Source: [Phormidium] sp. ETS-05
GTDB lineage: Bacteria; Cyanobacteriota; Cyanobacteriia; Cyanobacteriales; Laspinemataceae
DNA: 64,000 nucleotides
Direction of reading: 5' to 3'
NCBI RefSeq assembly: GCF_016446395.1
Contig: NZ_CP051168.1
Location: forward strand, 3,621,579-3,685,578
Positions 21,201-59,340 of this stretch are shown here, one piece after another (the stretch's first letter is position 1; the number at the start of each line of letters is the position of its first letter). A model generated the notes under the pieces. It saw nothing but the letters and a program-made list of their open reading frames with translations. It had not been told where the DNA came from and did no database searches. The translations under genes and the position numbers were made by a program.

Positions 21201-21261
21201 ATGATTAGGGTGCTGACTCAGAAAAGGTGATGTAATAGTTGAAGGATTTGTAGCTGGCACC

Positions 21262-24423: not shown

Positions 24424-24582
24424 TTGTCCTTTGTCCTTTGTCCTTTGTCCTTTGTCCTTTGTCCTTGGTCATTTGTCCTTTGTCCTTTGTCCTTTGACAA
24501 TTGACAATTGACAATTATCAATTATCAATTATCAATTATCAATTGTCAATTGTACTTTGGGGACAAGGGACAAGGGACAAAT
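24421..24582. repeat. STRR inverted-repeat array ((TTTGTCC)n ... (CAATTGA/CAATTAT)n ... (GGACAAG)n).
   Basis: Read directly from the sequence. Confidence 0.85.
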
Positions 24583-25776: not shown

Positions 25777-26567
25777 AACCGGCGAGCGGTGCGCAAAATT
25801 TGTCCGGCGAGAATGGCGGCGCCAAAACCGTTATCGATATTGACGACGCCGATGCCCGCTGCACAGGAATTGAGCATTGTCAAGAGGGGTGCGAGCCCCT
25901 GAAAGCTGGCGCCGTAACCGATGCTGGTGGGGACGGCAATTACAGGGGCGGCAGCTAACCCGGCGACGACGCTGGGGAGGGCGCCTTCCATCCCGGCGAC
26001 GACAATCAGGACGGAGGATTGGTGGATAATATGCTGGTTGGCGAATAGGCGGTGAATGCCTGCGACGCCCACATCGGCGAGCCGCTGCACCCGAAACCCG
26101 CATAATTCGGCGGTGACGGCGGCTTCTTCGGCTACGGGGAGGTCCGCAGTGCCTGCGCAGAGGATGCCAATACTGCCGGGATGTTGGGGTTCGCAGTCGG
26201 GGAGGGCGGTGGCACAGATGCGAGCTTGGGGGTAGTAGTGCAGTTCGGGGACTTTTTCCCGGACTTGCTCGAAGACTTCTGGGGTGATGCGGGTAGCCAT
26301 GACTACGGAATGGTTGCGGCGCATGGCTTGGAAGATATGGGCGATTTGCTCTGGGGTTTTCCCTGGTCCCCAGATGACTTCGGGGAAGCCGGTGCGCAGG
26401 TGGCGGTGGTTGTCGATGCGGGCGTATATTTCGCCGGAATTGGTGGCGCTGGAATTGCCGCTGAGGGGTTCAAACGCTAGGTGTTTGAGGTTTTCTAAGG
26501 CGGCGTCAGGATGGATTTTCCCGGCGGCGACGGCGGTGAGGAGGGTTTGTAGGGATTCGGGTGTCAT
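25767..26567 (-). CDS. larB: Nickel-pincer cofactor biosynthesis protein LarB (PurE-like carboxylase family).
   Basis: C-terminal PurE-like region GILCAGTADLPVAEE...IVVAGMEGALPSVVAGLAAAPVIAVPTSIGYG. An approximately 100-aa N-terminal extension is characteristic of LarB. Confidence 0.6.
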   Translation of the reverse strand: MTPESLQTLLTAVAAGKIHPDAALENLKHLAFEPLSGNSSATNSGEIYARIDNHRHLRTGFPEVIWGPGKTPEQIAHIFQAMRRNHSVVMATRITPEVFEQVREKVPELHYYPQARICATALPDCEPQHPGSIGILCAGTADLPVAEEAAVTAELCGFRVQRLADVGVAGIHRLFANQHIIHQSSVLIVVAGMEGALPSVVAGLAAAPVIAVPTSIGYGASFQGLAPLLTMLNSCAAGIGVVNIDNGFGAAILAGQILRTARRLCP

Positions 26568-26770
26568 TGGTCATTTGTCCTTGGTCATTTGTCATTGGTC
26601 ATTGGTCATTGGTCATTGGTCATTGGTCATTTGTCCTTTGTCCTTTGTCCTTTGTCTTTTTTTATTTATACAAATGAAAAAGGACAAAGTGTGACAATTG
26701 CCCTATATCTTATACAAGTGACAAGTGACAAGGGACAAGGGACAAGGGACAAGGGACAAGGGACAAATGG
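26566..26770. repeat. STRR inverted-repeat array ((TTGGTCA)n, (TTTGTCC)n ... (GTGACAA)n, (GGGACAA)n).
   Basis: Read directly from the sequence. Confidence 0.9.
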
Positions 26771-30433: not shown

Positions 30434-33077
30434 TTAGCTGTCACTGCGTGGGGGCAGGGGGTTGACTAAACCGCTGGCGGTACTAAATAAGTTGATGGGG
30501 TTTTTGCCATCGGTAATCAGTACGCTTTGGATGCCAAGACCTTCTAGCAAACGAGCCTGCATTTCTGGGCCTGCTTGAGCGATCGCCCGGAGGGTTTCTG
30601 TCCCGATCGCTGCCACTTTCTCGGCAAATTCCCGGCTAGTAATCTCCGCCATCGCCTGGGCTTTTTGCACTTCCAAATTGCTCAAAGCCTGCTGGTGTGC
30701 CAATTCTGCCTCTTGACGTGCCCTCATTTGCGCCAATTCTGTCTCAGCACGGATGCGGGTCGCTTCGGCTTCTTGTTGCGCCATACTTACGGCTAATTCC
30801 CCTTGAATGCGAGCCGCTTCGGCTTTTGCTCGCGCTGCCGCGATCGCCTCTCCCGTAGATTCAATAGCCGCGTTTTCCGCCTTTGATTCTAGCAGATTTT
30901 TCCGCTGTGCTTCCGAAGCCGCCTTATCAATAATTGCCTGCCTTTCTAACCGGGCTCGCTTCCTGTTCCAACCGCGCCGCATCCTGTCGCGCCGCCGCTT
31001 CTTGAGCATCCGTAGTAATTTTAATCGCCAACTGCACCGATTTCTGTAAACTCTTTAACGTTTCCTCATCCACCGGTTCCACCGATTGAATATCCACGTT
31101 AAAAATCACCAGATTATTCGTCCTGAATCGGAATTCATCGCGCACGTGCCCTTGGTCATCTAAGCCAAACACTGCTTGGCGAATAATCCGCGCCGAATTG
31201 CGGTGAAATTCATCAAAAGAAACACTAGCCACCGCACCCCGCACGCGAGAAGCAATAGCTTTACAAGCCGTATCCACAAAATCAGGCGCTTGAAACAGTT
31301 TGGCCGCCTCATCTTGATTGGTTTTATCTACATTAAAATACCAATTATAAGACAAGCGCAATTGTAACCGGGCGTGGTCTGCAGTTTCCACCGCAAACAA
31401 ATCGGTCATAAAGTCGGGTCCTAACAGCAAAGCCAGAGATTTAATCACATGGGGACGCTTGGGCACTCCTCCCGATAAACTCAGCACCGTAAAGGCTTCG
31501 TCTGGACCTAACATCACCAAATCTGGGCCAAACACAGTCCGGGCAGTTCTTTCCTTATAATCGTGAATCTGTACTGCCGCATTTTGGGGCACGTGAAACA
31601 CCACGGCGCGAGTTTTATCTCTTTGAAAGCTAGATTTCTGCTCGCCATCTTGGCGATATCTGCCCCGTTCAGAAACTGGGTCATTTTTAATCGCCAGCAA
31701 CTCTTCTACGATAGGCGGTACATCTTTTTCCCATAATTCTTCATAGGGACTGAGCATATATGCTCGCGGACCGCTGACTACTTTTAATTCCCCCGTTTGC
31801 ACGTCCCGGACGTAGATGCCTTCATTTTTATCTAAGGGAATGGCTTGGCGTTTTTCTACTACTTCCACCTCCACGCGGGGAATGTATTCTCGCGGTCCGG
31901 ATATCATCCATAAATCCCCCGGTTGACGGTGGATGATTTGGTCGCCTTCACCTTCATCGAAGGCTTCATTAGCCCGGAGTAACAAGGCTTCTTGTTCGCT
32001 GAGGACATAAATTCGGCGAATGCCCTCCGGTTGACCTTCAGAATCATCATCATCCGTATAGTAGGGGATTTCCAACTCTTCTCCGGGATGGAGGAAAAAG
32101 GAGATTCTCCCTTGACGGACTTCTCGTTTCCCTAGTTGCGGTTTGCCCAATTCATCGATGGGGTTGAAGACGATGCACCATTCCCGATCGCTCAGGGTGG
32201 TAATGGGTACTTCTCCCACCACTTCTTCATAGACATCGGGGATATGAATTTCCGCATCTTCTATAGTTACGAGCCATTCATCCCCAGCTTTGCGCCGCCG
32301 TCCGAAAATATCGGTAAAAGTCCGTTTAGCGCGCAAGTGTAAAGCGGTTTGTTCTGTTAATACATAAGCATCAATCAAGTCGATAACTTCTTCATCGACT
32401 CCGGGTAAATAAGAGCCTTCTTCTCTTACCAGCCATTCTTCCCCAGCGCGGCGCCTTTGTCCCGTGCGATCGGTGCAATTTTGTCGCGCCATCAAATGCA
32501 GCGCCTGATTAGGTTTGATAATTATCGCTTTCACCGTAGCGATAACTTCCACTTCCACGCGAGGAATATAAGTTCCTGGACCTTCAAATAGCCATTCATC
32601 CCCCGCCAACTGGTGGATAACGTTGTTTTGATTGTCAGTATAGGATAAATCTCTAATCGCTCGCAACCGCAGAGCTTGATTTCTTTCTACTACCTGCAAA
32701 AGCTGGACTTTTCCCTCGATTTCTTCCCCCGGATATACTGGGAAAGGCTCTTGCTGAAAGCGGATTTCTCGGTCGCCATATCGGAGTTTAATTTGACCGT
32801 GAGTATCCGCTACTGGTTGCCCCGACTCATCCCGCAATACGGGATTTTTTACTACGCAATAATGCCTAGGCGGCACTACGGTCATTTGCTGGGGTGACAT
32901 TACTACCCGTTCTTGGTCTCGCAGAGTAATCGTTTGGGGGCCAACTTCCAAACGGGTAACGCCAGTGTTGTTATCCAAGACGTGAATAAACTGTTGGGGT
33001 TTGAGGCGGATCGATCCCCCAGATATTCCGGGGAGTTCGCTGGGAGTTTCCCCAATGCGATCGGCTTTAGTCATCAA
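30434..33077 (-). CDS. Major vault protein (MVP) homologue, split by a +1 frameshift near 30940-30960 into a 716-aa N-terminal ORF and a 191-aa C-terminal ORF.
   Basis: The N-terminus ...[53 protein letters not shown]... mirrors the eukaryotic MVP N-terminus (...YIHVLDQN..VEVGPKTY...VPPRHYC..). Multiple MVP repeat units follow. The second ORF is the Ala/Glu/Arg/Gln-rich cap-helix coiled coil. The combined length of about 880 aa matches MVP. Confidence 0.75.
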
Positions 33078-34397: not shown

Positions 34398-34580
34398 CAG
34401 CTTGTGGTTTGTCCTTTGTCATTTGTCACTTGTCCTTTGTCCTTTGTCACTTGTTACTTGTCACTTGTATGAATAAAAAATCCCAAAGGACAAAATAATC
34501 CCTACCCAAGGACAAAGGACAAATGACAAAGGACAAATGACAAAGGACAAATGACAAAGGACAAAGGACAAAGGACAAAG
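34398..34580. repeat. STRR inverted-repeat array between ctaB and ctaA.
   Basis: Read directly from the sequence. Confidence 0.9.
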
Positions 34581-34588
34581 GACAAAAA

Positions 34589-46459: not shown

Positions 46460-46800
46460 GGATTCTTTTGTCTTTGGTCATTGGCTGTAGGGGCACGGCG
46501 TCATTGAGATTTCTCGTGAAACCCAGATATTAATGAGGCCGTGCCCCTACCACGGGATGATTTTTTTCATATGTGCAATTGTTATTTGTCGTTGGCCATT
46601 GGTTGTGGGGGCACTGCGTTATTAAGATTTCTCGTGAAACCTAGATATTAATGAGGCCGTGCCCCTACCAGGGGAGGCTTTTTTCATATGTGCAATTGTC
46701 ATTTGTACTTGGTCATTGGTTGTGGGGGCACGGCGTTATTAAGATTTCTCGTGAAACCCAGATATTAATGAGGCCGTGCCCCTACCACGGTAGATTGAGG
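46460..46800. repeat. Three tandem copies of an approximately 120-bp unit, each containing a 21-bp-stem hairpin (GTAGGGGCACGGCGTCATTAA ... TTAATGAGGCCGTGCCCCTAC).
   Basis: Units start near 46486, 46606 and 46726. Single copies of the hairpin occur at 21022-21086 and 40478-40543. Confidence 0.85.
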
Positions 46801-46827: not shown

Positions 46828-47916
46828 TTACGGCTGTAATTTTTGTAAGTTTTGCACTCGTGTGACATCACCTAATGTTTCATAACCTTGAATTGCCTCC
46901 TGGAGAAATCGCTGGGCTTGGGGGGTATCTTTCAGGGCGGAATAAATTTCTGCCAATTTTGCCGCTGCTTCGGTTTTGATGACTAAATCGGGGGTTTCAG
47001 TGGCGAGTTGGAAGGCTTGGAGATAGTTGTTTATGGCTAGCTGGTTTAGTTGTACTTCCTCGTACAAACCTGCTAGGGTGTGGTAAATTTGGGCTGATTT
47101 TATATTGGCACTGATGGCGGTTTCTAGGGTCTCAATGGCTTCGGCTCTTAACTTATATTTCTGGTATAATATGACTTGGGCTAGAGTCTGCGTGGGTTGG
47201 CCTGGTTGCTGCTGACTTAGTTCGGTGAGGTCGGCTTGGAGGTTGGCTCTTTTACTGTCATCAAGTATGGTGAATCCGAGCTGCATTCCGGGGTCATCAG
47301 TGGAACTAGCCCCGCTGTCGGTGATGATGGTAATTAAGTAATATTCTCCGGGTTGTAAGGGGGTTTCGCCTCCATAAACTACTTGATTGGTGGTGACTTC
47401 TGTTTTCCAATCGACTCCGACTCCCCGCACGCGCACGCGATAGCTGTTGGCTCCGGTTACGGCGTTCCAGCGGATGGTTGGGGTTGGGGAAAGTAGGTGG
47501 GTGCGGCGGGGACTGATGAGATAGGGAAGGTTGGCATCGATACCGGCGATCGCGTCCCCCATAGTGGGATCGGGATTCACAGTCGGCACCGGACAGATAT
47601 TTGCTACCCCTGACGGACTGCCACTGGGTACAGGCTGTGTGGTGCCGTTGCTGCATTGCAGCTTGACTTGGCTCCCGGCGGCGGGCCAAATTAAATCGCC
47701 GTTATCCAGGCTGGTGCCTACGGCGGCGGGTTGGTAGCTGCTCCACCCACTACGTTTGATAGATACTTGTCCGGTGGCGGTGAGGATCGTTCCCAGGGAA
47801 GCGGCGACGGCGGTTGGGGCAGTGGTGAATGCCCCAGTCACCATGATGGACGTGGTAAGTCCGAGGGAACTAAAGCGGTTTAAATACAGGTTTTTGGTGA
47901 GAGTTTGACTGCACAT
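46828..47916 (-). CDS. Secreted FecR-domain protein with C-terminal TPR repeats.
   Basis: Signal peptide. FecR-like GQVSIKRSGWSSYQPAAVGTSLDNGDLIWPAAGSQVKLQCSNGT. C-terminal TPR-like helices. It is paralogous to the ORF at 51545-51916. Confidence 0.55.
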   Translation of the reverse strand: MCSQTLTKNLYLNRFSSLGLTTSIMVTGAFTTAPTAVAASLGTILTATGQVSIKRSGWSSYQPAAVGTSLDNGDLIWPAAGSQVKLQCSNGTTQPVPSGSPSGVANICPVPTVNPDPTMGDAIAGIDANLPYLISPRRTHLLSPTPTIRWNAVTGANSYRVRVRGVGVDWKTEVTTNQVVYGGETPLQPGEYYLITIITDSGASSTDDPGMQLGFTILDDSKRANLQADLTELSQQQPGQPTQTLAQVILYQKYKLRAEAIETLETAISANIKSAQIYHTLAGLYEEVQLNQLAINNYLQAFQLATETPDLVIKTEAAAKLAEIYSALKDTPQAQRFLQEAIQGYETLGDVTRVQNLQKLQP

Positions 47917-49615
47917 CTAATTGCCTCTGTTGCATCAGCATAACTTCATAACTTACCAACCGTTGCTGAGCCATATCAATCCACTTACTTTCTTCGGGAG
48001 TAGTAGTGGGTTGAGCGTAACGCAGACAGTTTTCCCACTCGGTCAAAGCTGCCTTTGGTTGGTTTTGGTTTTCTAGCACTTGCGCTAATAAGCAGTAAGC
48101 GGAGGCTCGTTCTGGGTTGAGGCTGATAGCCATCCGCAAATTGGCTTCGGCGACTGCATAGCCTTTTTGGATAGCTCTTGCCCATCCCAAGTTTTTGTGC
48201 AGGGAATATTTCACCCCATTACTAAAATTGTTTTTCTGTAGTTCAGGCAATATTAGTTGTACTGCTGCCTCGGGATTTCCCGCTAGAATTTCCAACCGAG
48301 CTAAATTATTTACCGCTGGGGTGTAGCCTTTTTTGGCGGCTTTGTAGTAATACTCTTTGGCTAGGTTTTGGTTGAAAAAAGGCTGTTTTTCATACAGCAA
48401 ACCCAGATTATTATAAGGTTTGGGGTAATTGGGTTTGACCCAAATGGCGGTGTGATACCAAAATTCGGCTTGTTCTGGGTTTGTGGTTCCTGCGGCTTGT
48501 CCTAACCGGGTGCAAAAGTCGGCTATGGGTTGCAGAGTTAGCTGCAAGCCAATACACAATATCAATAAGCTGATGGCCGATCGCCGCATTTGCTGTGGGG
48601 AAAACGGCCATGAGAAGATGATTCCTAGACGCAGGTTCTGGCGACGAAACTCCCCAGAGATGTGAGGATTTGAGGGATTTTCCTCGGTGCTTTCTGAGGG
48701 AGCATCATAAAGATGCTGTAGCCGCTCTAACAGCACTTGGGGATTGGCTGGTCGCTGCTGGGGGAGAGGGGATATCATTTGGTCGAGCAAATCTGCCAAC
48801 GGTTTGGAGATTCCCTCTACCCGATCGCGCCATAGCAGTTTATTGGTGCGCCGATGTTTGGGCAAATCGTCGGGATATGAGCCGGTGAGCAAATGGACGA
48901 TCGTGCAGCCAAGACCAAAAATATCTGATTGGGGAACCGCCCCCCCGCTGCGCTGTTCTGGTGCGGTGTATCCATAGGAACCCACCGGCGTCACAGCGCG
49001 ATTAATAAACCCCACGTTGCCAAAGTCGATTAATGCTAATTCTCCGTTAGCTTTCAGGATAATGTTGCTGGGTTTGATATCCCGATGCAGCAATCCTTCT
49101 TCATGTACGTAAATCAGCAGTTGGGTGATTTGGCGCAACCAATTTACCGCGATCGCTTCGGTAATCTCCCCATTTTCCTGGAGCCATGCTCGGAGGTTAG
49201 TCCCCTCAATCTGCTCCATTACCAGACAGGGCAATTGCCTGTGAGCATCTAGAGAAATGGTGAAGAAGCCATCCGGTTCGACCCGAGGCAAACCGGGATG
49301 ACGCAACCGCTTTAATATGGTGGCTTCTCGTTCAAACAGAGTTTGGGCGCCGGTTTCCTGCATTTTGAGAACTTTCAGCACTTTGGGCCAGTCCTCTCGG
49401 TCAGGATTGATGTCCCAGTCTTCCACCTCAAAGACATCGGTTGTGTATTCTTCGTCCAATTGCCGCAGGGGTTTGGCGAGGCGATAGCGATCGTTGATCA
49501 GCAGTGGCGTACCGCAACTGAGACAGCGAGAGCCATCATCGGGGTTGAAGCGGTTGATACAACGGGGGTTAATGCAGTAACACCCGATTTCGGGGGGTTG
49601 ATTAGCGGCAGTCAT
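47870..49615 (-). CDS. Membrane Ser/Thr protein kinase with an N-terminal zinc-ribbon and C-terminal TPR/Sel1-like repeats.
   Basis: CINPRCINRFNPDDGSRCLSCGTPL zinc ribbon. Kinase subdomains (HRDIKPSNIIL, IDFGNVG, GSYGYTAPE). A TM helix, then TPR-like repeats. Confidence 0.8.
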   Translation of the reverse strand: MTAANQPPEIGCYCINPRCINRFNPDDGSRCLSCGTPLLINDRYRLAKPLRQLDEEYTTDVFEVEDWDINPDREDWPKVLKVLKMQETGAQTLFEREATILKRLRHPGLPRVEPDGFFTISLDAHRQLPCLVMEQIEGTNLRAWLQENGEITEAIAVNWLRQITQLLIYVHEEGLLHRDIKPSNIILKANGELALIDFGNVGFINRAVTPVGSYGYTAPEQRSGGAVPQSDIFGLGCTIVHLLTGSYPDDLPKHRRTNKLLWRDRVEGISKPLADLLDQMISPLPQQRPANPQVLLERLQHLYDAPSESTEENPSNPHISGEFRRQNLRLGIIFSWPFSPQQMRRSAISLLILCIGLQLTLQPIADFCTRLGQAAGTTNPEQAEFWYHTAIWVKPNYPKPYNNLGLLYEKQPFFNQNLAKEYYYKAAKKGYTPAVNNLARLEILAGNPEAAVQLILPELQKNNFSNGVKYSLHKNLGWARAIQKGYAVAEANLRMAISLNPERASAYCLLAQVLENQNQPKAALTEWENCLRYAQPTTTPEESKWIDMAQQRLVSYEVMLMQQRQLDVQSNSHQKPVFKPL

Positions 49616-49642
49616 GGCGGCACCCCATAGTTTGATTGATTT

Positions 49643-51247
49643 TTAACTGGCGAGGGAATTTCCAGCCGGATCGGGCGGTAGGGCTTTGATTAATGATTGG
49701 ATGTTGTCAGCGGCATAGCCGACTTCAAACAGAGACCGATCGCCCAGCCAGCCTAGTAACCGATTATATCGCTCTTCCACTTTCTTTTGACTGCGGAACG
49801 CCTTACACAGCCGCTCGTTTACCTGTTGTAAAATTGGGTGTTCCGTCACAGCATCGCCGCTATCTGATCCTAGAGACCCTTTCCCCAGGTCATGGCTTCT
49901 TAACAAGCTCAATTTTTCGGCGTCTTGGGTTTTCACTGCCTCCATAATTTCGTTGCCAGCTTGAACCACCAGTTGATTCGTCACATATTCCAGCACCATC
50001 GGTTGCAGACTAAACCGAGCGCTGCCGGACTCAGTGATTTTTTCAATCAGGTTGCGCCGTCCCAGAGATTCTAAAGCCTCTAGGAGTTCGGCCTGATGTT
50101 CCGATAGTTCGATATCGTCTTGCAGGGTAAAGAATGTCACCGGTTGGCGCTCGATCGCCAGCCAGTAGAGAATTTCTTTCTCAAACTCATACAAGCGCTC
50201 AAACTGAAAGTCCAGCAAATCCCGAATGTTGCCAAACACAAAGGTTTTTTGCTTCAGGAACTCGGACACATTGCCGCCAAACAGCTCTTTAATCGTGGTA
50301 GCGACAATCTTTAAAGCCAAAGGATTGCCTCGGTAGAGGCGCGTTAGCTCTACCCACTGCTCCGGTTCCGATAACCCTTTAGCGCGGAAAATTTCCCACG
50401 ATTGCTCTTCGTCTAATTCCCTTAGCTCCATCACCCGCACGGGCATGGTTTCACCTTGCAGCAAGGCAATATCGTCGATTTGCTCCAGACTGGTAATCAC
50501 CAAGCAGCTTTGGTGGGATTCCGTGGCCACTCGTTTGATGAGATTGCCATAATCTTGATAGCTATCGCCATAATGCCCCGCTAGGTTGCCACTTCTGAGA
50601 ATCGCTTGGGCGCTATCTAGCACAATCAGACAGCGCTTGGCTTTCAATGTATCCATCAGTCGCGATATCCTGTCGTCAGTTTCATATGGTGGGCTGACGC
50701 CGGGGGCGAAAAATTTAATCAAATCTGCCAGCAGTTCCCTGGCTGGGGGAGCGTCCCGCAGACTGCGCCAAATTACTCCATCAAATTGGTCTTGAATTTG
50801 TTTGGCGAGTTTGATGGCTAGGGTGGTTTTGCCAATTCCCCCCATCCCGCAAATGGCGACCAAACGACAGCGATCGTTTAGTATCCACCCGGCTAAGGTG
50901 TCTAGCTGTTCGCTGCGACCGTAAAAAATGGACACATCGGGTGCTTCTCCCCAGTCGCGGCGGGGTTCTCCGTCCCACTCGAGGCTACTGCCATCTGGTG
51001 TTTGCCCCCGAGACAAAGCCAAGAGATGCTGCTGTAGTTTCGCCAGCTTCACAGGCCCGCGCCCCGGAATCTCAAATTTTTTGTAGATGTCGCTCAGGCG
51101 CTTGCGTACTAGGTCTTCGCTAATCTCGACTTTGGCGGCGATCGTCGGTGTTGATTCTCCCTTCATGGCTAGGGACAACACATGGAACTCTCCATCGGAA
51201 ACTTGCTTCTCGTCGGCGATGGCTTTTAACAGGTCCTCCTGAATCAC
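49643..51247 (-). CDS. STAND-class NB-ARC ATPase with an N-terminal LuxR/sigma-70 region-4-like HTH; no C-terminal repeat sensor domain.
   Basis: HTH segment LSLAMKGESTPTIAAKVEISEDLVRKRLSDIYKKF. Walker A VAICGMGGIGKTTLA and Walker B RCLIVLDSAQ. NB-ARC-type helical region. Confidence 0.7.
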   Translation of the reverse strand: MIQEDLLKAIADEKQVSDGEFHVLSLAMKGESTPTIAAKVEISEDLVRKRLSDIYKKFEIPGRGPVKLAKLQQHLLALSRGQTPDGSSLEWDGEPRRDWGEAPDVSIFYGRSEQLDTLAGWILNDRCRLVAICGMGGIGKTTLAIKLAKQIQDQFDGVIWRSLRDAPPARELLADLIKFFAPGVSPPYETDDRISRLMDTLKAKRCLIVLDSAQAILRSGNLAGHYGDSYQDYGNLIKRVATESHQSCLVITSLEQIDDIALLQGETMPVRVMELRELDEEQSWEIFRAKGLSEPEQWVELTRLYRGNPLALKIVATTIKELFGGNVSEFLKQKTFVFGNIRDLLDFQFERLYEFEKEILYWLAIERQPVTFFTLQDDIELSEHQAELLEALESLGRRNLIEKITESGSARFSLQPMVLEYVTNQLVVQAGNEIMEAVKTQDAEKLSLLRSHDLGKGSLGSDSGDAVTEHPILQQVNERLCKAFRSQKKVEERYNRLLGWLGDRSLFEVGYAADNIQSLIKALPPDPAGNSLAS

Positions 51248-51544
51248 GCCTTATTCCTCCCTTTAACTTCTTGGTACTCTATCATACCCGTGAAAAAAAC
51301 GCAAGGTTTTTTTCATCCTCGTGCGATTCTGGGCTTTGGCGTTTCTAACCTTTTTATATCAAAGGTTAGCCGCCATATTCATAGATGCCTTATCATCGCA
51401 TAATTCCATTATTGGTCATATGAGTTAATTTTAACCTCCTGGGGTATGTAAATTTTTGTTGCAAAAATCCCCAGCTCGGCAAAAAAAGCCAAATTTCCCC
51501 CCGATAGAAGGTTGACGGCTATTCACTGCTGGGGACCGTGCTAG

Positions 51545-51916
51545 ATGTCAACCAAAATTACTGTGAGGGGAATTTCCACGAACCTGCTGGGGTGGGCAAT
51601 GCCGATCGCCACGGCTGCAGTTGCAGGGCTGGTAATATCTCCCCTGCTCACACCCGGGAGAGCCGATGCAGCCACCAGTGTGGGCGCGATCAGCAGCGCC
51701 TCTGGAACCGTATGGGTTAAACCCAGCAACTCCAGCCAATATTATGCCGCCCCTGTAGGCACCACATTATATGTTGGGGATTTGATTTGGCCCGACGCCG
51801 GGAGCGAAGTGATTCTGGAATGCAGCAGTGGGAAAAAATTGCGCGTTCCCAGCGGTGTTCCCTCCGGGGTCACGAATATTTGTCCCCTACCCCAGTCTGA
51901 GGACACTGGGATTTAA
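51545..51916 (+). CDS. Small secreted FecR-like domain protein, paralogous to the N-terminal domain of the ORF at 46828-47916.
   Basis: Signal peptide LLGWAMPIATAAVAGLVISPLLTPGRADA. GTVWVKPSNSSQYYAAPVGTTLYVGDLIWPDAGSEVILECSSGKKLRVPSGVPSGVTNICP aligns with the paralogue. Confidence 0.45.
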   Translation: MSTKITVRGISTNLLGWAMPIATAAVAGLVISPLLTPGRADAATSVGAISSASGTVWVKPSNSSQYYAAPVGTTLYVGDLIWPDAGSEVILECSSGKKLRVPSGVPSGVTNICPLPQSEDTGI

Positions 51917-52066
51917 ATTGTCTGTTATCGCGGAAATTCTCTGTGGTCATACTTCGCCCCTACAGATTGACACCCTACTGGCTAGCCAGAAATAGCGCTC
52001 CAGAAACCGGGTTTCTTTCACCCTGCGACTAGCCAGAAGGTTTCTTTCCCTTGCCCATATTGTTGA

Positions 52067-52363
52067 TTAGCGGCGCAGCACCGAACTGATAATTATTGTA
52101 ATCGTCGCACTAGCAATCAGAGTAAAAGCCAGTTGCACCACCCACGGCATTGCTTGCTGGTAGTTGGCAAAGCGATCGTTAAACTTCTCCGAGTCTCTTG
52201 ACAGCTTGTCAACTTCGGTGGTCAGCTTGTCAACTTCGGTGGTCAGCTTGTCAACATCAGTCGATAGCTCATCTAACTTTTCTATGACATCCGCTAAGGT
52301 TGGTTCTTGATTGGCTGTCCTGGTCATCTGTGTACCTTTCCCTCGATAATTGTATTTGACCAT
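52067..52363 (-). CDS. Small coiled-coil protein with a C-terminal TM helix (XhlA/holin-accessory-like topology).
   Basis: (VDKLTTE)x3 heptad repeats, then the hydrophobic C-terminus WVVQLAFTLIASATITIIISSVL. Confidence 0.35.
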   Translation of the reverse strand: MVKYNYRGKGTQMTRTANQEPTLADVIEKLDELSTDVDKLTTEVDKLTTEVDKLSRDSEKFNDRFANYQQAMPWVVQLAFTLIASATITIIISSVLRR

Positions 52364-52508
52364 ATAATTCGAAAAGTTGCCAATATTTTTTTACCTTTGT
52401 CGATTTTTCAAAAAGTAGAAAATTTTATTTTTGCTTAATTTTAAAAATCCCAAACACAAGCGATAATTAAATTAGGTAAAAACTCCGACCTTTAAAGAGG
52501 AGGACAAT

Positions 52509-52952
52509 ATGTCAAGTCAAAACGATAAAGAAATGGGAAAAGTTTTCGCCAGTATGACGATCGTTAACCGAGCTGACCAAATTTTGGCAGAAGCGGGGGT
52601 GATACCAGAAGACCAAATCCGATCACTCCACCTCAAAAACGTCCTAGTGGATACCGGAGCAACCACCTTGTGTTTGCCACCAGAGTTAATTAGCAAGCTG
52701 GGACTAAAAATCCTCAAAGAGGTAGATGTAGCCACAGCAATGGGCATTGGCAAAGCCCGCATTTTCCGAGATGCCTCCATCTTGATATCTGACCGAGAAG
52801 GAACCTTCGAGTGTTTGGAGCTACCGGGGGGTAGCGAACCGCTACTGGGAGTAATTCCTTTAGAATCTTTGGGCTTAGAAGTAGATTTGCAAAATCAAAC
52901 CTTAAAGCTCTTGCCCATCAGTCCCACCGAAACCTATTTGACGATTTTGTAG
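52509..52952 (+). CDS. Retropepsin-like (clan AA) aspartic protease, copy 1 of a tandem triplication.
   Basis: The catalytic NVLVDTGATTLCLPPELISKLGL (D-T-G-A) motif and a 147-aa size are typical of bacterial retropepsin-like proteases. Confidence 0.7.
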   Translation: MSSQNDKEMGKVFASMTIVNRADQILAEAGVIPEDQIRSLHLKNVLVDTGATTLCLPPELISKLGLKILKEVDVATAMGIGKARIFRDASILISDREGTFECLELPGGSEPLLGVIPLESLGLEVDLQNQTLKLLPISPTETYLTIL

Positions 52953-53112
52953 GGAAAAATTTCTAGGAGAGCCGTAGTAGGGTGGGCAATGCCTGACGGA
53001 TAATTTTTTTATAACCATTGTTCTATAGTTAGCACTGCCCACCCTACAGAACTCCCATTATTAGCTATAATTAAATTAGGTAAAAACTCCGACCTTTAAA
53101 GAGGAGGACAAT

Positions 53113-53556
53113 ATGTCAAGTCAAAACGATAAAGAAATGGGAAAAGTTTTCGCCAGTCTAACCATCGTTAACCGAGCCGACCAAATTCGCGCCGAGGATG
53201 GGACAATCCCCCTAGACCAAATCCGATCGCTCCACCTCAAAAACGTCCTAGTGGATACCGGAGCAACCACCTTGTGTTTGCCACCAGAGTTAATTAGCAA
53301 GCTGGGACTAAAAATCCTCAAAGAGGTAGATGTAGCCACAGCAATGGGCATTGGCAAAGCCCGCATTTTCCAAGATGCCAAAATCTCCATATATGACCGA
53401 GAAGGCACTTTCGAGTGTTTGGAGTTACCGGGGGGTAGCGAACCGCTACTGGGAGTAATTCCTTTAGAATCTTTGGGCTTAGAGGTAGATTTGCAAAATC
53501 AAACCTTAAAGCTCTTGCCCATCAGTCCCACCGAAACCTATTTGACGATTTTGTAG
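53113..53556 (+). CDS. Retropepsin-like aspartic protease, copy 2.
   Basis: About 90% identical to copy 1 and has the same DTGA motif. Variable patches IRAEDGTIPLDQ and QDAKISIYD. Confidence 0.7.
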   Translation: MSSQNDKEMGKVFASLTIVNRADQIRAEDGTIPLDQIRSLHLKNVLVDTGATTLCLPPELISKLGLKILKEVDVATAMGIGKARIFQDAKISIYDREGTFECLELPGGSEPLLGVIPLESLGLEVDLQNQTLKLLPISPTETYLTIL

Positions 53557-53717
53557 GGAAAAATTTCTAGGAGAGCCGTAGTAGGGTGGGCAATGCCTGA
53601 CGGATAATTTTTTTTATGACCATTGTTCTATAGTTAGCACTGCCCACCCGACAGAACTCTAAACACAAGCTATAATTAAATTAGGTAAAAACTCCGACCT
53701 TTAAAGAGGAGGACAAT

Positions 53718-54159
53718 ATGTCAAGTCAAAACGATAAAGAAATGGGAAAAGTTTTCGCCAGTCTAACCATCGTTAACCGAGCCGACCAAATTTTGGCAGA
53801 AGCGGGGGTGATACCAGAAGACCAAATCCGATCGCTCCACCTCAAAAACGTCCTAGTGGATACCGGAGCAACCACCTTGTGTTTGCCACCAGAGTTAATT
53901 AGCAAGCTGGGACTAAAAATCCTCAAAGAGGTAGATGTAGCCACAGCAATGGGCATTGGCAAAGCCCGCATTTTCCAAGATGCCAAAATCTCCATATCTG
54001 ACCGAGAAGGCACTTTCGAGTGTTTGAGTTACCGGGGGTAGCGAACCGCTACTGGGAGTAATTCCTTTAGAATCTTTGGGCTTAGAGGTAGATTTGCAAA
54101 ATCAAACCTTAAAGCTCTTGCCCATCAGTCCCACGGAAACCTATTTGACGATTTTGTAG
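53718..54159 (+). CDS. Retropepsin-like aspartic protease, copy 3. It is a mosaic of copies 1 and 2 and is frameshifted near 54025-54040.
   Basis: The N-terminal part equals copy 1 (ILAEAGVIPEDQ) and the middle equals copy 2 (QDAKISI). Two single-G losses (gtttggag to gtttgag; ccgggggg to ccggggg) truncate the ORF at FECLSYRG*. The downstream sequence still encodes the conserved C-terminus out of frame. Confidence 0.5.
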
Positions 54160-54418
54160 GGAAAAATTTCTAGGAGAGCCGTAGTAGGGTGGGCAGTGCC
54201 TGACGGATAATTCTTTTTATAACTATTGTTCTGTAGGGGCGAATGGCCATTCGCCCCTACAGCCCACCCTACAGAACTACCCAGAAACCTTCGGCAACCA
54301 ATATTTCGGTTTTGATGCAGAGATGGTCGCCGCAGGTTTCTTGACTTTAATTTTTGTAAATTAATTAAAAAAATCGCCAATCCATGCTATCATAGAATCA
54401 ACTCCAGGATAATTTGGT

Positions 54419-54745
54419 ATGAATCAACCGAATCAAATCCCCGAAATTATGAAAAAAACCAGCCAGGAAATCAAGAAAATTTATGGCGATCGATTAGACA
54501 GAATTATTTTATTTGGCTCCCAAGCTAGAGGCGATGCTAGACCCGACTCAGATATTGATGTTATGATTGTCTTGAAAAATAATTTCAATTATTTTCAAGA
54601 AAGCCAGCGCATCAGTGAGCCGATCGCGGACTTATGTTTAGAGTATAATGTTTTAATTAGCTGTGCCTTTGCCACCCGCGAACAATTTCAACAGCGCAAC
54701 ACCGGATTCTTCCGCAACATCCGCCGCGAAGGAGTTGCTCTATGA
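54419..54745 (+). CDS. mntA: Nucleotidyltransferase (MNT) antitoxin of a HEPN/MNT pair.
   Basis: GSQARGDARPDSDIDVMIV is the minimal nucleotidyltransferase motif. It overlaps the downstream HEPN gene by 4 nt. Confidence 0.85.
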   Translation: MNQPNQIPEIMKKTSQEIKKIYGDRLDRIILFGSQARGDARPDSDIDVMIVLKNNFNYFQESQRISEPIADLCLEYNVLISCAFATREQFQQRNTGFFRNIRREGVAL

Positions 54746-55137
54746 CTCCCGAACAACAAATCCTGTTAGATAAAGCAGCCAGAAGCCTGCAAGCTGCCCG
54801 GGAGCTAAACCAGACAGGTTTTGCCGAATTTGCCGCCTCCCGCGCCTACTACGCCATGTTTTATGTAGCCACAGCATTTCTCGAAGGAGAAGGACTATCC
54901 TATGCTCGACATTCAGCCGTTATTTCTGCTTTTGGTCAACAATTTACTAAAACTGGAAGAATTCCTGTTAAATATCACCGTTACCTCATTGATGCCGAAA
55001 GAAATCGTTTAAGTGCTGATTACGATTTAGAACCGAATATAACCACAGCAGAAGCCGAGCAGATAATATCTTATGCCGACGAAATATTAAATTTTGCCCG
55101 CGCTAATATGGATTCTCTTCCTCCCCCCTCTCCTTAA
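54742..55137 (+). CDS. hepT: HEPN-domain toxin of the HEPN/MNT module.
   Basis: 131 aa. HEPN-type helices SRAYYAMFYVATAFLEGEGLSYARHSAVISAF. The ATGA start overlaps the MNT stop. Confidence 0.8.
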   Translation: MTPEQQILLDKAARSLQAARELNQTGFAEFAASRAYYAMFYVATAFLEGEGLSYARHSAVISAFGQQFTKTGRIPVKYHRYLIDAERNRLSADYDLEPNITTAEAEQIISYADEILNFARANMDSLPPPSP

Positions 55138-55665
55138 CCATAGATTATATCAAGTCCTACTGCGTCGTTTGTGAATATTTGCCATAGGGGGAGGAGGGGG
55201 AAGAGGGGGAAGAGCAGAGGTAAAATAACCCCCCCAAAGGGGGTTTGATTCATGTAGCCACAGGTTTTAACCTGTGGCGTCAGAGGGCGTTGCCCCGCCC
55301 GACCTAATTCCGATCGCCACCGCATTCCGCCACTATCAAAGCCCCTCTCCCTACCGCCGGTGTGGGGTTTGGGGTGAGGGCAAGAGCTGATTTTTCGCCC
55401 GAGGGCAACTATTCACATGACGATGCGAACAGACTTGATATTACTCTTTTTCCCGCAACTACCCAGAAACCTTCTTCACCAAGATTTCGGTCCAGATGCA
55501 GAGCCGATCGCCCCCACCCCATGAACCGCAAAAGGTCCCCCGCCCCATCCCCCCATCAACACCCCCCAGCAGTCCTATGCCCAAATTTCAGGCACTACGG
55601 TGAGGATTGACAAGTAAAAAGGCTACAATTAAAGATAGGAAAGCTGAAATTTACGGGTAATTGGC

Positions 55666-57354
55666 TTGAATTCTGTGGAATCGCCGGACAACGCCTCAAA
55701 ACCAAACTTTGAATTTGACTCGATCGACACCGCTCTCGCTGCCATCAAAGCAGGGCGACCCATCATCGTGGTGGACGATGAGAACCGGGAAAATGAAGGG
55801 GACCTCATTTGCGCCGCTCAGTTTGCCACCCCCGACACCATCAACTTCATGGCAGTGCATGCCAGAGGTCTAATTTGTCTGGCCATGACAGGCGATCGCC
55901 TCGACAGCCTCGACCTCCCCTTAATGGTCACAAACAACACCGACAGCAACCAAACCGCGTTCACCGTCAGCATCGATGCCGGACCTCATTTGGGCGTCAC
56001 CACCGGCATTTCCGCAGACGATCGGGCCCGCACCATCCAAACCGCCATTCATCCCAACACCAAACCCACCGACCTACGCCGTCCCGGTCATATCTTCCCC
56101 CTCCGCGCCCGAGATGGTGGGGTATTAAAACGCGCCGGTCACACCGAAGCCGCCGTGGACCTCACCAGACTCGCCGGTTTATACCCCGCTGGAGTCATCT
56201 GCGAAATCCAAAACCCCGACGGCTCAATGGCGCGGCTACCCGAACTCATAGAATATTCCCAAACACACCACCTCGCCATCATCAGCATCGCCGATTTAAT
56301 CGCCTACCGACTGCAACACGAGCGATTCGTCATCCGCGAAACCGTCGCCAACCTCCCCACCGAATTTGGCCAATTCAAAATCTACGCCTATCGCAACACC
56401 CTAGACGGCTCCGACCATATAGCCATTGTCAAAGGAGACCCCGCCGACTTTTACAACCAACCCATCATGGTGCGGGTCCATTCCGAATGTCTCACCGGCG
56501 ACGCCTTGGGCTCCCTGCGCTGTGACTGCCGGATGCAGCTCCAAGCCGCCATGAAAATGATAGAAAACAAAGGTCAAGGAGTAGTGGTCTATCTGCGCCA
56601 AGAAGGACGCGGTATCGGCTTGATTAACAAACTCAAAGCCTACTCCCTGCAAGATTCCGGTCTCGACACCGTAGAAGCCAACGAACGCCTCGGCTTTCCC
56701 GCCGACCTGCGCAACTACGGCGTCGGTGCCCAAATTCTCAACGATTTACGAGTTAACAAAATCCGCCTCGTCACCAACAACCCCCGCAAAATCGCCGGGT
56801 TAAAAGGCTATGGATTGGAAATAGTCGATCGCGTCCCCCTACTCATCGAGACCAACCCCTACAACTGCAGCTATCTCGCCACCAAAGCCGAAAAACTCGG
56901 TCATATGCTCCTGCAGACCTATCTCATCACCGTCGCCCTCCATTGGACTGAAGAAGAACTCACACCCCAGCAGACATATGAATATCTAGAGAAAGTCCGG
57001 TCCATAGCCGCCGAAGAACATTTACTCCTCCAAGAAGAAAAACGACCAGTCACAGTAGCCGTATTCGGCAAACCCACCCTCACCTTTCACCTAGGCTTCG
57101 ACCAACCCCAACTAGCCGCCCCCGACTGGTATCAACAACCAGACCATCCCTACCTCCAGGCGATCGGTCAAATACTCGACGAACTAGCCACCTGGCCGGG
57201 ACTCGACTGCCTAGAATTTCTAGTATCATCAGGCAGCGACCCCCTCACCAGCCTAGGAGTGCAACTCAACCGCATCACCTTCCCCCGCACCAAACCCCCA
57301 TCCACCCTCAGCGGCGAACTCAACCACCAGATAGTCTATAGTTTCAGCAATTAA
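55666..57354 (+). CDS. ribBA: Bifunctional DHBP synthase / GTP cyclohydrolase II (RibBA) with an approximately 160-aa C-terminal extension.
   Basis: RENEGDLICAAQF (RibB) and HSECLTGDALGSLRCDCRMQ ... RNYGVGAQIL (RibA). 562 aa against about 400 aa typical. Starts at a TTG/GTG. Confidence 0.9.
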   Translation: MNSVESPDNASKPNFEFDSIDTALAAIKAGRPIIVVDDENRENEGDLICAAQFATPDTINFMAVHARGLICLAMTGDRLDSLDLPLMVTNNTDSNQTAFTVSIDAGPHLGVTTGISADDRARTIQTAIHPNTKPTDLRRPGHIFPLRARDGGVLKRAGHTEAAVDLTRLAGLYPAGVICEIQNPDGSMARLPELIEYSQTHHLAIISIADLIAYRLQHERFVIRETVANLPTEFGQFKIYAYRNTLDGSDHIAIVKGDPADFYNQPIMVRVHSECLTGDALGSLRCDCRMQLQAAMKMIENKGQGVVVYLRQEGRGIGLINKLKAYSLQDSGLDTVEANERLGFPADLRNYGVGAQILNDLRVNKIRLVTNNPRKIAGLKGYGLEIVDRVPLLIETNPYNCSYLATKAEKLGHMLLQTYLITVALHWTEEELTPQQTYEYLEKVRSIAAEEHLLLQEEKRPVTVAVFGKPTLTFHLGFDQPQLAAPDWYQQPDHPYLQAIGQILDELATWPGLDCLEFLVSSGSDPLTSLGVQLNRITFPRTKPPSTLSGELNHQIVYSFSN

Positions 57355-57360: not shown

Positions 57361-57700
57361 ACTCCCCTCTCCCTACCTGGGAGAGGGGATGGGGGTGAGG
57401 GCTTTAGAGGCTTCAGTGTGGTGATAAAGCCAGCCCTCTATCCCCCAACCCCTTTCTCCCAGGGGGGGAGAAAGGGGCTAAAGCCCTCTCCCGTTTTCTC
57501 CCCTCTCCCTACTTGGGAGAGGGGCCGGGGGTGAGGGCTTTAGAGGCTTCAGTGTGGTGATAAAGCCAGCCCTCTATCCCCCAACCCCTTTCTCCCAGGG
57601 GGGGAGAAAGGGGCTAAAGCCCTCTCCCGTTTTCTCCCCTCTCCCTACCTGGGAGAGGGGATGGGGGTGAGGGCAGATTTGCGGTGAGGGTCTGCACCAA
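57361..57700. repeat. Approximately 140-bp unit repeated about 2.3 times, containing the CCCTCTCCC-N-GGGAGAGGG and CCCCTTTCTCCC-GGGGGGGAGAAAGGGG palindromes.
   Basis: Read directly. Unit starts near 57361, 57502 and 57640. Confidence 0.8.
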
Positions 57701-58867: not shown

Positions 58868-58889
58868 ATTGACTCCTGGTGGCTGACAG

Positions 58890-59340
58890 GTCCCCCCATC
58901 ACCCCGTCTCCGGAGTCTTACCCTCTCCCCACCTGGGAGAGGGGTTGGGGGTGAGGGCTTTCTGGGTCAGATAAGGTCCCCCCATCACCCCGTCTCCGGA
59001 GTCTTACCCTCTCCCCACCTGGGAGAGGGGTTGGGGTGAGGGCTTTCTGGGTCAGATAAGGCCCCCCATCACCCCGTCTCCGGAGTCTTACCCTCTCCCC
59101 ACCTGGGAGAGGGGTTGGGGGTGAGGGCTTTCTGGGTCAGATAAGGTCCCCCCATCACCCCGTCTCCGGAGTCTTACCCTCTCCCCACCTGGGAGAGGGG
59201 TTGGGGGTGAGGGCTTTCTGGGTCAGATAAGGTCCCCCCATCACCCCGTCTCCGGAGTCTTACCCTCTCCCCACCTGGGAGAGGGGTTGGGGGTGAGGGC
59301 TTTCTGGGTCAGATAAGGTCCCCCCATCACCCCGTCTCCC
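58890..59340. repeat. Five tandem copies of an approximately 84-bp unit (CCCTCTCCCCACCTGGGAGAGGGGTTGGGGGTGAGGGCTTTCTGGGTCAGATAAGGTCCCCCCATCACCCCGTCTCCGGAGTCTTA).
   Basis: Read directly. The core palindrome begins at about 58921, 59005, 59085, 59169 and 59253. Confidence 0.85.

Follow-up and report, generated by a model that had tools for sequence, protein, structure and literature searches.

A tandem array of retropepsin-like protease genes in [Phormidium] sp. ETS-05 and the two-state patches of its cyanobacterial family

Retropepsin-like aspartic proteases of bacteria are covered by the models PF13975/PF13650 and TIGR03698 and include APRc of Rickettsia conorii (PDB 5c9f). We analysed a three-copy array of such a gene in [Phormidium] sp. 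ETS-05, within a window that is the whole 64,000-nt stretch of DNA studied. Like the described bacterial proteins, the array product is single-domain and has a hydrophobic-hydrophobic-D-T-G-A loop, a glycine-rich flap tip (AMGIGK) and a predicted retropepsin beta-barrel. It differs by an N-terminal strand-helix insertion, which holds the first of two variable patches. Unlike APRc and the secreted retropepsin-like enzymes of Pseudomonas aeruginosa (PMC11957051), it has no membrane anchor or signal peptide. This small protein lacks a hydrophobic leader and is therefore probably cytoplasmic.

The predicted fold is the same as that of HIV-1 PR and XMRV PR (Foldseek probability 1.0, TM 0.6-0.69 normalised to target) at 15-21% identity, and LLG of the array protein sits at the position of retroviral IIG. 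In contrast to the 99-aa retroviral enzymes, the array protein has 147 aa, and its gene is chromosomal and standalone, outside any polyprotein or mobile element. As for these enzymes, an obligate dimer to which each subunit gives one Asp is presumed, and the array protease would act in this form. We found no biochemical or expression data for this cyanobacterial family in the literature. The family is an ordinary, already annotated one, and copies 1 and 2 are annotated in ETS-05. What is new here is that the patches are family-wide two-state cassettes, and that close pairs in one genome hold one gene of each type.

Protease family, fold and neighbourhood

The DTGA region, which the original prediction had read as that of a retropepsin-like protease, scored above the gathering scores of two clan AA models. 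PF13975 gave 31.2 and 31.5 bits for copies 1 and 2 (gathering score 28.2), and PF13650 gave 27.8 and 28.5 bits (gathering score 24.3). In the catalytic segment VLV-D48-T-G-A-T-T, residues D48, T49, G50 and A51 were at least 90% conserved among homologues. L112-L113-G114, the second hydrophobic-hydrophobic-Gly motif, was invariant in 120 homologues. The AlphaFold2 model (pLDDT 81, pTM 0.72) predicted a flap hairpin with strands 67-76 and 79-93 and the tip AMGIG. Its top Foldseek matches were HIV-1 PR, XMRV PR and APRc, the last being the best solved bacterial match (31% identity), and the best 50 PDB matches were almost all retroviral proteases, plus APRc. When the family profile was searched against the PDB by sequence, no related structure was found (best E-value 0.46). 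The Pfam scores and the fold match place the array product, a standalone protein, among the clan AA retropepsin-like aspartic proteases. The family is highly conserved in cyanobacteria: the cyanobacterial homologues collected were 65-83% identical, came from several orders and were often multi-copy.

Several other assignments were rejected. TIGR03698 (clan_AA_DTGF) gave 49.7 and 50.9 bits, below its cutoff of 57.35, and the motif is DTGA rather than DTGF; the protein is a relative of that family, not a member. The PADLOC candidate defence protein PDC-M08B matched weakly and partially (24.6 bits, residues 38-82 around DTG), and at 80 loci no partner gene was conserved. A domain fusion in the 306-aa representative P0130 was also dismissed, as it has a low-complexity tail and no second protease domain. 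The protease had no match in PHROGs.

Clustering of ORFs within 3 kb at the 80 loci (80 of 197 genome matches kept) showed nothing conserved but a spurious antisense ORF, and hence no neighbour that would point to a substrate. The divergent neighbour in ETS-05 had been called XhlA-like, but PF10779 reached 18.8 bits against a gathering score of 34.7. The gene instead encodes an ssr2422-family thylakoid membrane protein (NF053525, 104.7 bits versus a cutoff of 38). The array lies among variable genes (STAND NTPase, Ser/Thr kinase, MNT/HEPN pair), and a toxin-antitoxin cassette is inserted directly beside it.

Array structure and the mosaic third unit

Table 1. Features of the array and its divergent neighbour, in window coordinates.
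Feature	Coordinates	Strand	Details
ssr2422-family thylakoid membrane protein	52067-52363	-	divergent neighbour; syntenic in closest relative
Repeat unit 1	52459-53062	+	-10 box, Shine-Dalgarno, gene, stem-loop
-10 box of unit 1	52462-52467	+	GATAAT
Shine-Dalgarno of unit 1	52497-52503	+	GAGGAGG
Copy 1 gene	52509-52952	+	147 aa, WP_199245457.1; ILAEAGV and RDAS (R/T type); catalytic D48-T-G-A
Patch 1 of copy 1	52581-52616	+	codons 25-36; predicted end of helix 21-28 and next loop
Patch 2 of copy 1	52767-52793	+	codons 87-95; predicted end of strand 79-93 and turn
Stem-loop 1	52977-53047	+	16-nt arms, 39 nt between; dispersed palindrome family; T-run absent
Repeat unit 2	53063-53667	+	
Copy 2 gene	53113-53556	+	147 aa, WP_199245458.1; IRAEDGT and QDAK (Q/K type)
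Stem-loop 2	53581-53652	+	single 3'-arm mismatch (CCCGAC)
Repeat unit 3	53668-54274	+	unit-2 backbone; patch-1 tract and two isolated sites as in unit 1
Copy 3 gene	53718-54159	+	ILAEAGV and QDAK; two 1-nt G deletions break the frame
Stem-loop 3	54184-54272	+	nests a second perfect palindrome, 54231-54262, CTGTAGGGGCGAATGG/CCATTCGCCCCTACAG

The direct-repeat search found three head-to-tail units of 604-605 bp each at ~52459-54274, which bears out the predicted tandem triplication. Two families of direct repeats (300 nt and 203 nt) were each present in three places, spaced 604, 605 and 603 bp, at identities of 92-98%. In the nucleotide alignment of the three units the mean column identity was 94%; over alignment columns 20-588, units 1 and 2 were 94.4% identical, units 1 and 3 96.5%, and units 2 and 3 96.3%. 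The RBS-like leader AAAGAGGAGGACAATATG was identical in all three, as had been claimed. The predicted 147-aa DTGA ORF is intact in copies 1 and 2, both with VLVDTGATT, and copy 3 is a frameshifted 147-codon gene. Copy 2 is identical to database cluster P0002 (WP_199245458.1), which also takes in copy 1 and the 107-aa product of copy 3. All three products map to the 6,286,783-bp ETS-05 chromosome.

Since every unit is equipped with a -10 box and a strong ribosome-binding site, the copies can probably be expressed independently. The hairpin arms GTAGGGTGGGCA.../...TGCCCACCCTAC were present in all three units, with folding energies of -32 to -55 kcal/mol and z of -2.6 to -4.7, and further members of this palindrome family occur elsewhere in the window. 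Through the mismatch in stem-loop 2, unit 3 gains a better -35-like hexamer (CCGACA). The hairpins had been described as terminator-like. They do exist in every unit, but a canonical Rho-independent terminator was rejected, as the arms lie 39-61 nt apart, no T-run follows and the consensus scan of 51900-54500 returned 0 sites. An mRNA 3' end or stability element is more likely. The Rfam scan of 51500-55700 gave sub-threshold chance matches only (mir-335, 22 bits; gathering score 64).

Copies 1 and 2 differ at 30 of 444 nt, and 14 of these differences lie inside one 30-nt window, a clustering matched by none of 20,000 permutations. Along unit 3, the informative sites read 2-2-2-2-2, then fourteen as in unit 1, then 2-2-2 onwards. 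Unit 3 is thus a unit-2 backbone with a 26-50 nt tract of unit 1 inside it, and the mosaic foreseen for copy 3 (first patch of copy 1, second patch of copy 2) is real. The patch peptides given earlier were correct except for the second patch of copy 3, which is QDAKISISD and not QDAKISIYD; one site there is in common with copy 1. Peculiar to unit 3 are C at 53998, G at 54135 and the nested palindrome. Gene conversion or unequal crossing-over had been proposed. Because the unit-1 tract is internal, short-tract gene conversion is needed, and unequal crossing-over alone cannot yield unit 3.

The syntenic locus of Oscillatoriaceae M33_DOE_052, the closest relative, contains ssr2422, a single protease gene, the hairpin and ribBA (88-93% nucleotide identity), which argues for a single ancestral copy. 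The three copies then probably reflect a recent, lineage-specific tandem amplification of a standalone gene. We infer that illegitimate recombination at CCCA(A/G)AAAC, a short similarity shared by the left and right flanks, probably produced the first duplication. Unequal homologous exchange would next have added the third unit, and only later would a 26-50 nt conversion tract have carried patch 1 between units.

It is hardly credible that the units are instead mobile gene cassettes (integron-like or MITE-borne) or the target of a diversity-generating retroelement. The imperfect inverted repeat after each gene, the variable surroundings and the adjoining toxin-antitoxin insertion would suit such an origin. 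However, the units reproduce a chromosomal locus in full (promoter, RBS and gene), and this locus is syntenic in the relative. Family members also have no conserved neighbours. An integron cassette was rejected as the arms GTAGGGTGGGCA are unlike attC GTTRRRY, and a retroelement target as all four bases, not adenines alone, are substituted in the patches. Neither reverse transcriptase nor integrase was found among the genes scanned around the array.

Frameshifts of copy 3 and assembly quality

Compared with units 1 and 2, copy 3 has two 1-nt deletions: at 54026 GG is reduced to G, and at 54034-54038 G6 has become G5. Its ORF (53718-54041) stops at 107 aa, which is the annotated product, and a change of frame gives an undamaged reading of the last 41 codons (54034-54159). 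The two single-G losses reported before are present in the sequence, but they may be residual Nanopore homopolymer errors. In the same window, the essential purH is split and a G is missing from a G-run. When one G was put back in its TTTGGGG, the conserved motif SAFGGIVALN was restored. The deletions of copy 3 share this error class and may be artefacts.

The ETS-05 assembly was Nanopore-first with reads averaging ~4 kb; R9.4 data went through miniasm and minipolish, and short-read correction came afterwards (PMC7650686). Short reads from unit 3 would fit unit 2 perfectly here, so that the polisher would leave errors of unit 3 in place. For copy 3, a redundant second Q/K-type copy, the deletions have two candidate origins: a young inactivation, or Nanopore homopolymer errors left uncorrected, the latter being about as likely as the former or more so. 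We give somewhat less than an even chance to a true pseudogene, in which the redundant third copy, of Q/K type, is decaying through two real single-G deletions. Two independent deletions 8 nt apart, one of them in a mere GG dinucleotide, point that way, and so do the 107-aa product in the NCBI record and the truncated remnants that are common beside full copies in relatives (L023, L060, L105, L153, L046). A redundant Q/K copy also agrees with the one-of-each-type rule described below. The 41 undamaged codons after the shift, the assembly route and the G-run deletion in purH argue against it.

Could the whole array be an assembly artefact, with one or two true copies expanded or mis-polished? 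The single copy in the closest relative and the error in purH would allow this, and yet we consider it very unlikely. The units differ from one another at 20-32 positions, which are distributed in a structured rather than random way, the two inter-unit junctions are distinct, and the nested palindrome is found in unit 3 alone. Other genomes hold tandem pairs of this protease family, and Nanopore reads of ~4 kb on average cover the 1.8-kb array (PMC7650686). As a practical warning, frameshifted 'pseudogenes' within repeats of Nanopore-first assemblies need caution.

Two-state patches and same-genome pairs across the family

The patches had been taken as local differences between the copies. Our results showed that they are instead the two forms of a dimorphism that is old and runs through the whole family: patch 1 is ILAEAGV or IRAEDGT and patch 2 is RDAT or QDAK. 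Among 182 unique homologues, the combinations RDT+QK (40), RDT+RT (40), LAV+RT (39) and LAV+QK (16) were all found at appreciable frequency, and the two patches assorted almost independently in this homologue set. The pairing of patch-1 and patch-2 states was even reversed between genomes. Because this linkage is inconsistent across genomes, a simple two-isoform definition fails.

The same-genome pairs were much more regular. All six pairs at least 85% identical outside the patches were heterotypic, with one R/T (R/S in ETS-05) and one Q/K member, in a sample where differing pairs are favoured since short-read assemblies would merge homotypic tandem duplicates that are identical. Identity outside the patches was 98.9% in L134 and likewise in MFD01689 (L009/L015), 97.4% in ETS-05, 93.1% in USR001 (L002), 92.2% in L159 and 85.6% in CTOTU46641 (L022/L004). 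At L060, a remnant beside a full copy was also heterotypic to it. For different-locus pairs, the patch-2 states differed in 0 of 87 at an identity of at least 97% and in 21 of 366 at 93-97%. The two USR001 copies were 90.5% identical to each other and 74-77% to the ETS-05 copies. Synonymous differences cluster with the replacements in the patch, which speaks for an old tract: in the MFD01689 pair, codons 85-95 held 8 of the 11 differing nucleotides and 7 of the 10 differing codons. In the census, which kept 80 of 197 genome matches, several organisms showed a single type, such as the three R/T sequences attributed to Laspinema olomoucense, and copies 2 and 3 of ETS-05 form a homotypic Q/K pair.

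These pairs suggest that selection may keep one R/T-type and one Q/K-type subunit in a genome. Forms R87/T90 and Q87/K90, in many cases combined with ILAEAGV or IRAEDGT, would then be complementary subunit isoforms, a tentative reading that we regard as possible rather than probable. Such isoforms could form an asymmetric heterodimeric protease or act as two differently regulated enzymes, and duplication would have captured a permanent 'heterozygosity'. In paralogue pairs, gene conversion homogenises the remainder of the gene, but the patch-2 state stays different.

Alternatively, the states may be functionally equivalent and the mosaicism neutral, which we think rather doubtful. The patches would have been copied by short-tract conversion from diverged paralogues, or would be old islands in which dense mismatches block further conversion; R26/D29 versus L26/A29, or a positive charge relocated between R87 and K90, may make no difference. 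The near-independent assortment of all four combinations and the reversed pairing agree with this. So does the clustering of synonymous differences with the replacements in the patch tracts, as expected of imported or old DNA, and across the family no synonymous codon usage was tied to patch type. Against it, neutral mosaicism should produce many homotypic recent duplicates, whereas six of six close same-genome pairs were heterotypic, compared with 0-6% for equally similar genes of different loci. No other ETS-05 paralogue of at least ~73% identity was found among the best 120 database clusters that could serve as donor.

Patch 2 (codons 87-95) was aligned by hhalign to HIV-1 PR residues 60-68 at a match probability of 4.6%. 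From the anatomy of HIV-1 PR, we assume that the patches fall in the 10s-loop (fulcrum) and the 60s (cantilever) on the outer face. By this homology, they would affect flap dynamics or the recognition of partners, not the catalytic subsites.

Taken together, a recent amplification of a retropepsin-like gene, old dimorphic patches and selected heterotypic pairs make up an overall explanation that we hold to be reasonably probable. As such, the array is a recent gene amplification of an ordinary kind in an annotated family, and its interest lies in what it exposes. In the sampled pairs, close paralogues always differ at the same two predicted surface residues, and conversion erases other differences. 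This is relevant to the diversification of dimeric aspartic proteases after duplication and to the interplay of selection and gene conversion in bacteria. If true, a heterodimer would be an extant form of the intermediate stage that has been postulated to link homodimeric retropepsins to bilobed pepsins. If the isoform reading is true, the family would offer a clean natural case of a ~30-nt selected island that resists gene conversion in several cyanobacterial orders.

Concerted evolution of paralogues with selected islands of divergence is known from the cyanobacterial psbA D1 isoforms and from tufA/tufB. As in those genes, the protease paralogues are closer within a genome than orthologues are between genomes, and a few positions stay different. 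In contrast to psbA and tufA/tufB, the protease island is only ~30 nt long, and the two patches reassort between lineages.

Structure and history of the protease array

A direct-repeat search found three head-to-tail units of 604-605 bp, with a mean column identity of 94% in the alignment of all three. Pairwise identity over the shared part was 94.4% for units 1/2, 96.5% for units 1/3 and 96.3% for units 2/3. Every unit has the same leader, AAAGAGGAGGACAATATG, a frame of 147 codons that includes VLVDTGATT, and a long stem-loop with 16-nt arms (GTAGGGTGGGCAATGC and GCACTGCCCACCCTAC). The -10-like box reads GATAAT in unit 1 and TATAAT in the other two. The threefold repeat of the original prediction, with its shared leader, 147-aa DTGA frame and hairpin, was thus borne out. 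Copy 2 is identical to WP_199245458.1 and copy 1 is WP_199245457.1; copy 1 and the 107-aa copy 3 product share a cluster with the copy 2 protein. All three are encoded on the 6,286,783-bp [Phormidium] sp. ETS-05 chromosome, where copies 1 and 2 are already annotated as 'retroviral-like aspartic protease family protein'.

The stem-loop has a folding energy of -32 to -55 kcal/mol (z-scores -2.6 to -4.7 in units 1-3), and in unit 3 it contains a nested second perfect palindrome. It had been described as terminator-like, but it lacks a 3' T-run, and a terminator scan of the array region found no terminator-like sites. Its palindrome core recurs directly 3' of another gene, with variants elsewhere, which identifies the stem-loop as a dispersed palindromic element.

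The closest relative found was Oscillatoriaceae M33_DOE_052 (88-93% nucleotide identity), whose locus order is ssr2422, single protease gene, hairpin, ribBA. This places the amplification in the ETS-05 lineage alone, barring collapse of an array in this short-read MAG; its contig showed no signs of a collapsed array. The only sequence common to the left (TCCCAAACACAAGC) and right (ACTACCCAGAAACC) flanks is CCCA(A/G)AAAC. The first duplication was probably mediated by this microhomology, and unequal exchange would have followed. Unit 3 equals unit 2 at informative sites except for 14 consecutive and two isolated sites. At the 14 sites (alignment columns 145-170) it equals unit 1, with unit-2-like bounds at columns 135 and 186. 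Gene conversion or unequal crossing-over had been proposed; a short conversion tract of 26-50 nt can yield this pattern, whereas a single crossover cannot. With M33_DOE_052 as outgroup, the 3' half shows derived states common to units 2 and 3, and the unit 2 sequence at patch 1 (codons 25-36) is not a few mutations away from that of units 1 and 3.

The adjacent divergent gene, earlier taken as XhlA-like, scored only 18.8 bits for XhlA (threshold 34.7) and 104.7 bits (cutoff 38) for the ssr2422 family of thylakoid membrane proteins. In conclusion, the array is genuine, but it represents a recent amplification, in itself ordinary, of a gene already annotated. The main observation of the original prediction stands; its side claims on XhlA, the terminator and the crossing-over alternative are corrected.

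Surroundings of the array

The ssr2422-family gene contains an in-frame repeat encoding VDKLTTE heptads, part of a coiled coil. On the other side of the array, an MNT/HEPN toxin-antitoxin pair is flanked by the exact 18-bp direct repeat AACTACCCAGAAACCTTC plus about 30 more diverged bases. In M33_DOE_052 the AACTACCCAGAAACCTTC region is present once, between hairpin and ribBA, and an 83%-identical MNT gene lies beyond the ssr2422 gene. The cassette was therefore inserted or relocated at the very edge of the array. Upstream, the kinase-TPR protein is possibly split from the next TPR ORF. Together with the STAND NTPase and MNT/HEPN, it makes the region look variable and similar to a defence island.

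Features of the window and protease remnants in homologous loci
Feature	Position	Details
Heptanucleotide repeats (examples)	6749-6795, 14191-14398, 21091-21201, 24423-24553, 26562-26766, 34408-34586	
purH ORFs	11096-12085; 12040-12657	Pfam AICARFT_IMPCHas 1-170; 173-311
purH break	near 12029-12045	GCTTTTGGGGTATTGTGGCT; one G missing in TTTGGGG
Palindrome core	12669-12692	
191-aa ORF	30434-31009 (-)	
716-aa ORF	30927-33077 (-)	Pfam Vault 234 bits, MVP_shoulder 175 bits
117-nt array	46467-46790	2.8 copies
Ser/Thr kinase-TPR protein; also LuxR-HTH/NB-ARC STAND NTPase	46828-51247 (-)	kinase-TPR: PADLOC PD-T4-6-like, 303 bits
ssr2422-family gene	52067-52363	
21-nt tandem repeat in it	52202-52264	~2.6 copies (two exact, third ~81%)
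Protease array	52459-54274	
Copy 3, missing G	54026	from GG
Copy 3, missing G	54034-54038	from G6 run
MNT/HEPN segment	54275-55474	1.18 kb
MNT	54419-54745	
HEPN	54742-55137	
136-nt array	57362-57674	2.3 copies
86-nt array	58888-59339	5.3 copies
Protease remnant, L023	6524-6658	locus coordinates
Protease remnant, L060	5703-5891	locus coordinates
Protease remnant, L105	3463-3645	locus coordinates
Protease remnant, L153	6187-6357	locus coordinates
Protease remnant, L046	11026-11187	locus coordinates

Heptanucleotide tandem repeats (TTTGTCC, GACAAAG, GTCATTG and others) are numerous across the window, often as inverted pairs flanking genes, and are similar to the short tandemly repeated repetitive sequences known from filamentous cyanobacteria. 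The larger arrays may be miniature repeat elements. A motif CCTGGGAGAGGGG...GGGGGTGAGGGC occurs in both the 136-nt and the 86-nt array, and the 117-nt array has the distinct palindromic unit GGGGGCACGGC...GCCGTGCCCC. With its matches to the repeats and the shoulder domain of major vault protein (MVP), the 716-aa ORF is a bacterial homologue of that protein; the 191-aa ORF that overlaps it downstream may encode the C-terminal part, severed by another frameshift. GC content is 49.8% over the whole window, against 59.09% for the chromosome (PMC7650686).

Reading frame of copy 3 and accuracy of the assembly

The two single-G losses predicted in copy 3 are present in the assembled sequence. They end the frame after 107 codons, and the other 41 codons are intact in another frame. 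The assembly was made from 180,370 Nanopore reads (0.73 Gbp, ~4 kb average) with miniasm and minipolish, and Illumina correction came afterwards (PMC7650686). With reads of this length, the array copy number rests on reads spanning the 1.8-kb array, but single-base indels within repeats are suspect.

The window itself offers a direct control: the essential gene purH is also broken, into two overlapping ORFs. Adding one G to its G-run regained the conserved motif SAFGGIVALN. This split can almost certainly be put down to a Nanopore homopolymer error left in the ETS-05 assembly. The copy 3 deletions are of the same class, and since unit 3 is locally identical to unit 2, short-read polishing would be least effective there. 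Between an artefact and a young pseudogene, we lean slightly towards an artefact.

Paired isoforms and the protease fold

Clustering at 90% identity gave 2,286 clusters for the family, with E-values of at most 0.001, and at 50% identity there are 1,079 representatives. Its core is 147 aa long, with 65-83% identity among cyanobacterial hits from several orders, and several copies per genome are frequent. Literature searches on the family found nothing, and no neighbour gene is conserved across 80 family loci. In a set of 182 unique homologues, patch 1 has in essence two states (I-L-A-E-A-G-V, LAV, or I-R-A-E-D-G-T, RDT), and so has patch 2 (codons 87-95; R-D-A-T, RT, or Q-D-A-K, QK). RDT was combined with QK in 40 and with RT in 40, and LAV with RT in 39 and with QK in 16. 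Copy 1 pairs LAV with an R-type patch 2, and copy 2 pairs RDT with QK. Copy 3 joins patch 1 of copy 1 to patch 2 of copy 2, as predicted; this LAV/QK combination is rarer, yet natural.

Across 160 related loci, full tandem or near-tandem pairs were found in USR001, L134 and L159, and close dispersed pairs in MFD01689 (13 kb apart; L009/L015) and CTOTU46641 (L022/L004). All six same-genome pairs, ETS-05 included (with R/S instead of R/T), were heterotypic, that is, of opposite types at patch 2; the sample is small, the genome census is incomplete, and identical duplicates collapse in short-read assemblies. Nucleotide identity outside the patches was 98.9% in L134 and MFD01689, 97.4% in ETS-05, 93.1% in USR001, 92.2% in L159 and 85.6% in CTOTU46641. 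Between loci, heterotypic pairs made up 0/87 at 97% identity or more, 21/366 at 93-97% and about half below 89%. Copies 2 and 3 of ETS-05 are homotypic, which counts against the rule, and patch-1/patch-2 linkage varies between genomes.

Within USR001 the two copies share 90.5% identity, but each shares only 74-77% with ETS-05 copies of either type, the signature of concerted evolution. In the MFD01689 pair, synonymous differences at codons 85, 86, 89, 91 and 95 accompany R87Q and T90K, with three differences elsewhere. The tract is therefore old or imported DNA rather than fresh point mutation. It is conceivable that dense mismatches form a neutral barrier to conversion and so preserve the patch differences. 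We read this as gene conversion making the paralogues alike, with selection holding patch 2, and often patch 1 too, different. As far as can be told, this paired-isoform pattern is new, and it is directly testable.

Several other cyanobacteria have truncated or stop-containing protease remnants adjacent or close to full copies, so duplication followed by decay recurs in the family. In L060, the truncated remnant and the adjoining full copy are likewise heterotypic.

Both intact copies passed the Pfam thresholds of gag-asp_proteas and Asp_protease_2, which confirmed the clan AA membership, and reached 50 bits against the TIGR03698 cutoff of 57. Having no hydrophobic N-terminus, the protease is probably cytoplasmic. 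A sequence search against the PDB detected no solved structure. An AlphaFold2 model from 120 homologues (pLDDT 81, pTM 0.72) had its closest PDB matches in HIV-1, HIV-2 and XMRV proteases, and also matched the fold of the Rickettsia retropepsin-like protease APRc (5c9f, 31% identity). The modelled patch 1 takes in the end of helix 21-28 and the next loop, which are inserted between strand one and the strand that runs up to D48. Patch 2 takes in the last part of strand 79-93, together with the turn that precedes strand 96-104. A weak hhalign alignment to HIV-1 protease (probability 4.6%) placed D48 at D25, R84 at R57 and residues 87-95 at 60-68. In HIV-1 protease the 60-68 region is the 'cantilever', which packs beside the 10s loop of the 'fulcrum' at the outer surface, remote from both the catalytic cleft and the dimer interface; cantilever motions are coupled to flap opening. 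From this cantilever position of patch 2, we infer that the dimorphism may affect flap dynamics or a partner/exosite surface.
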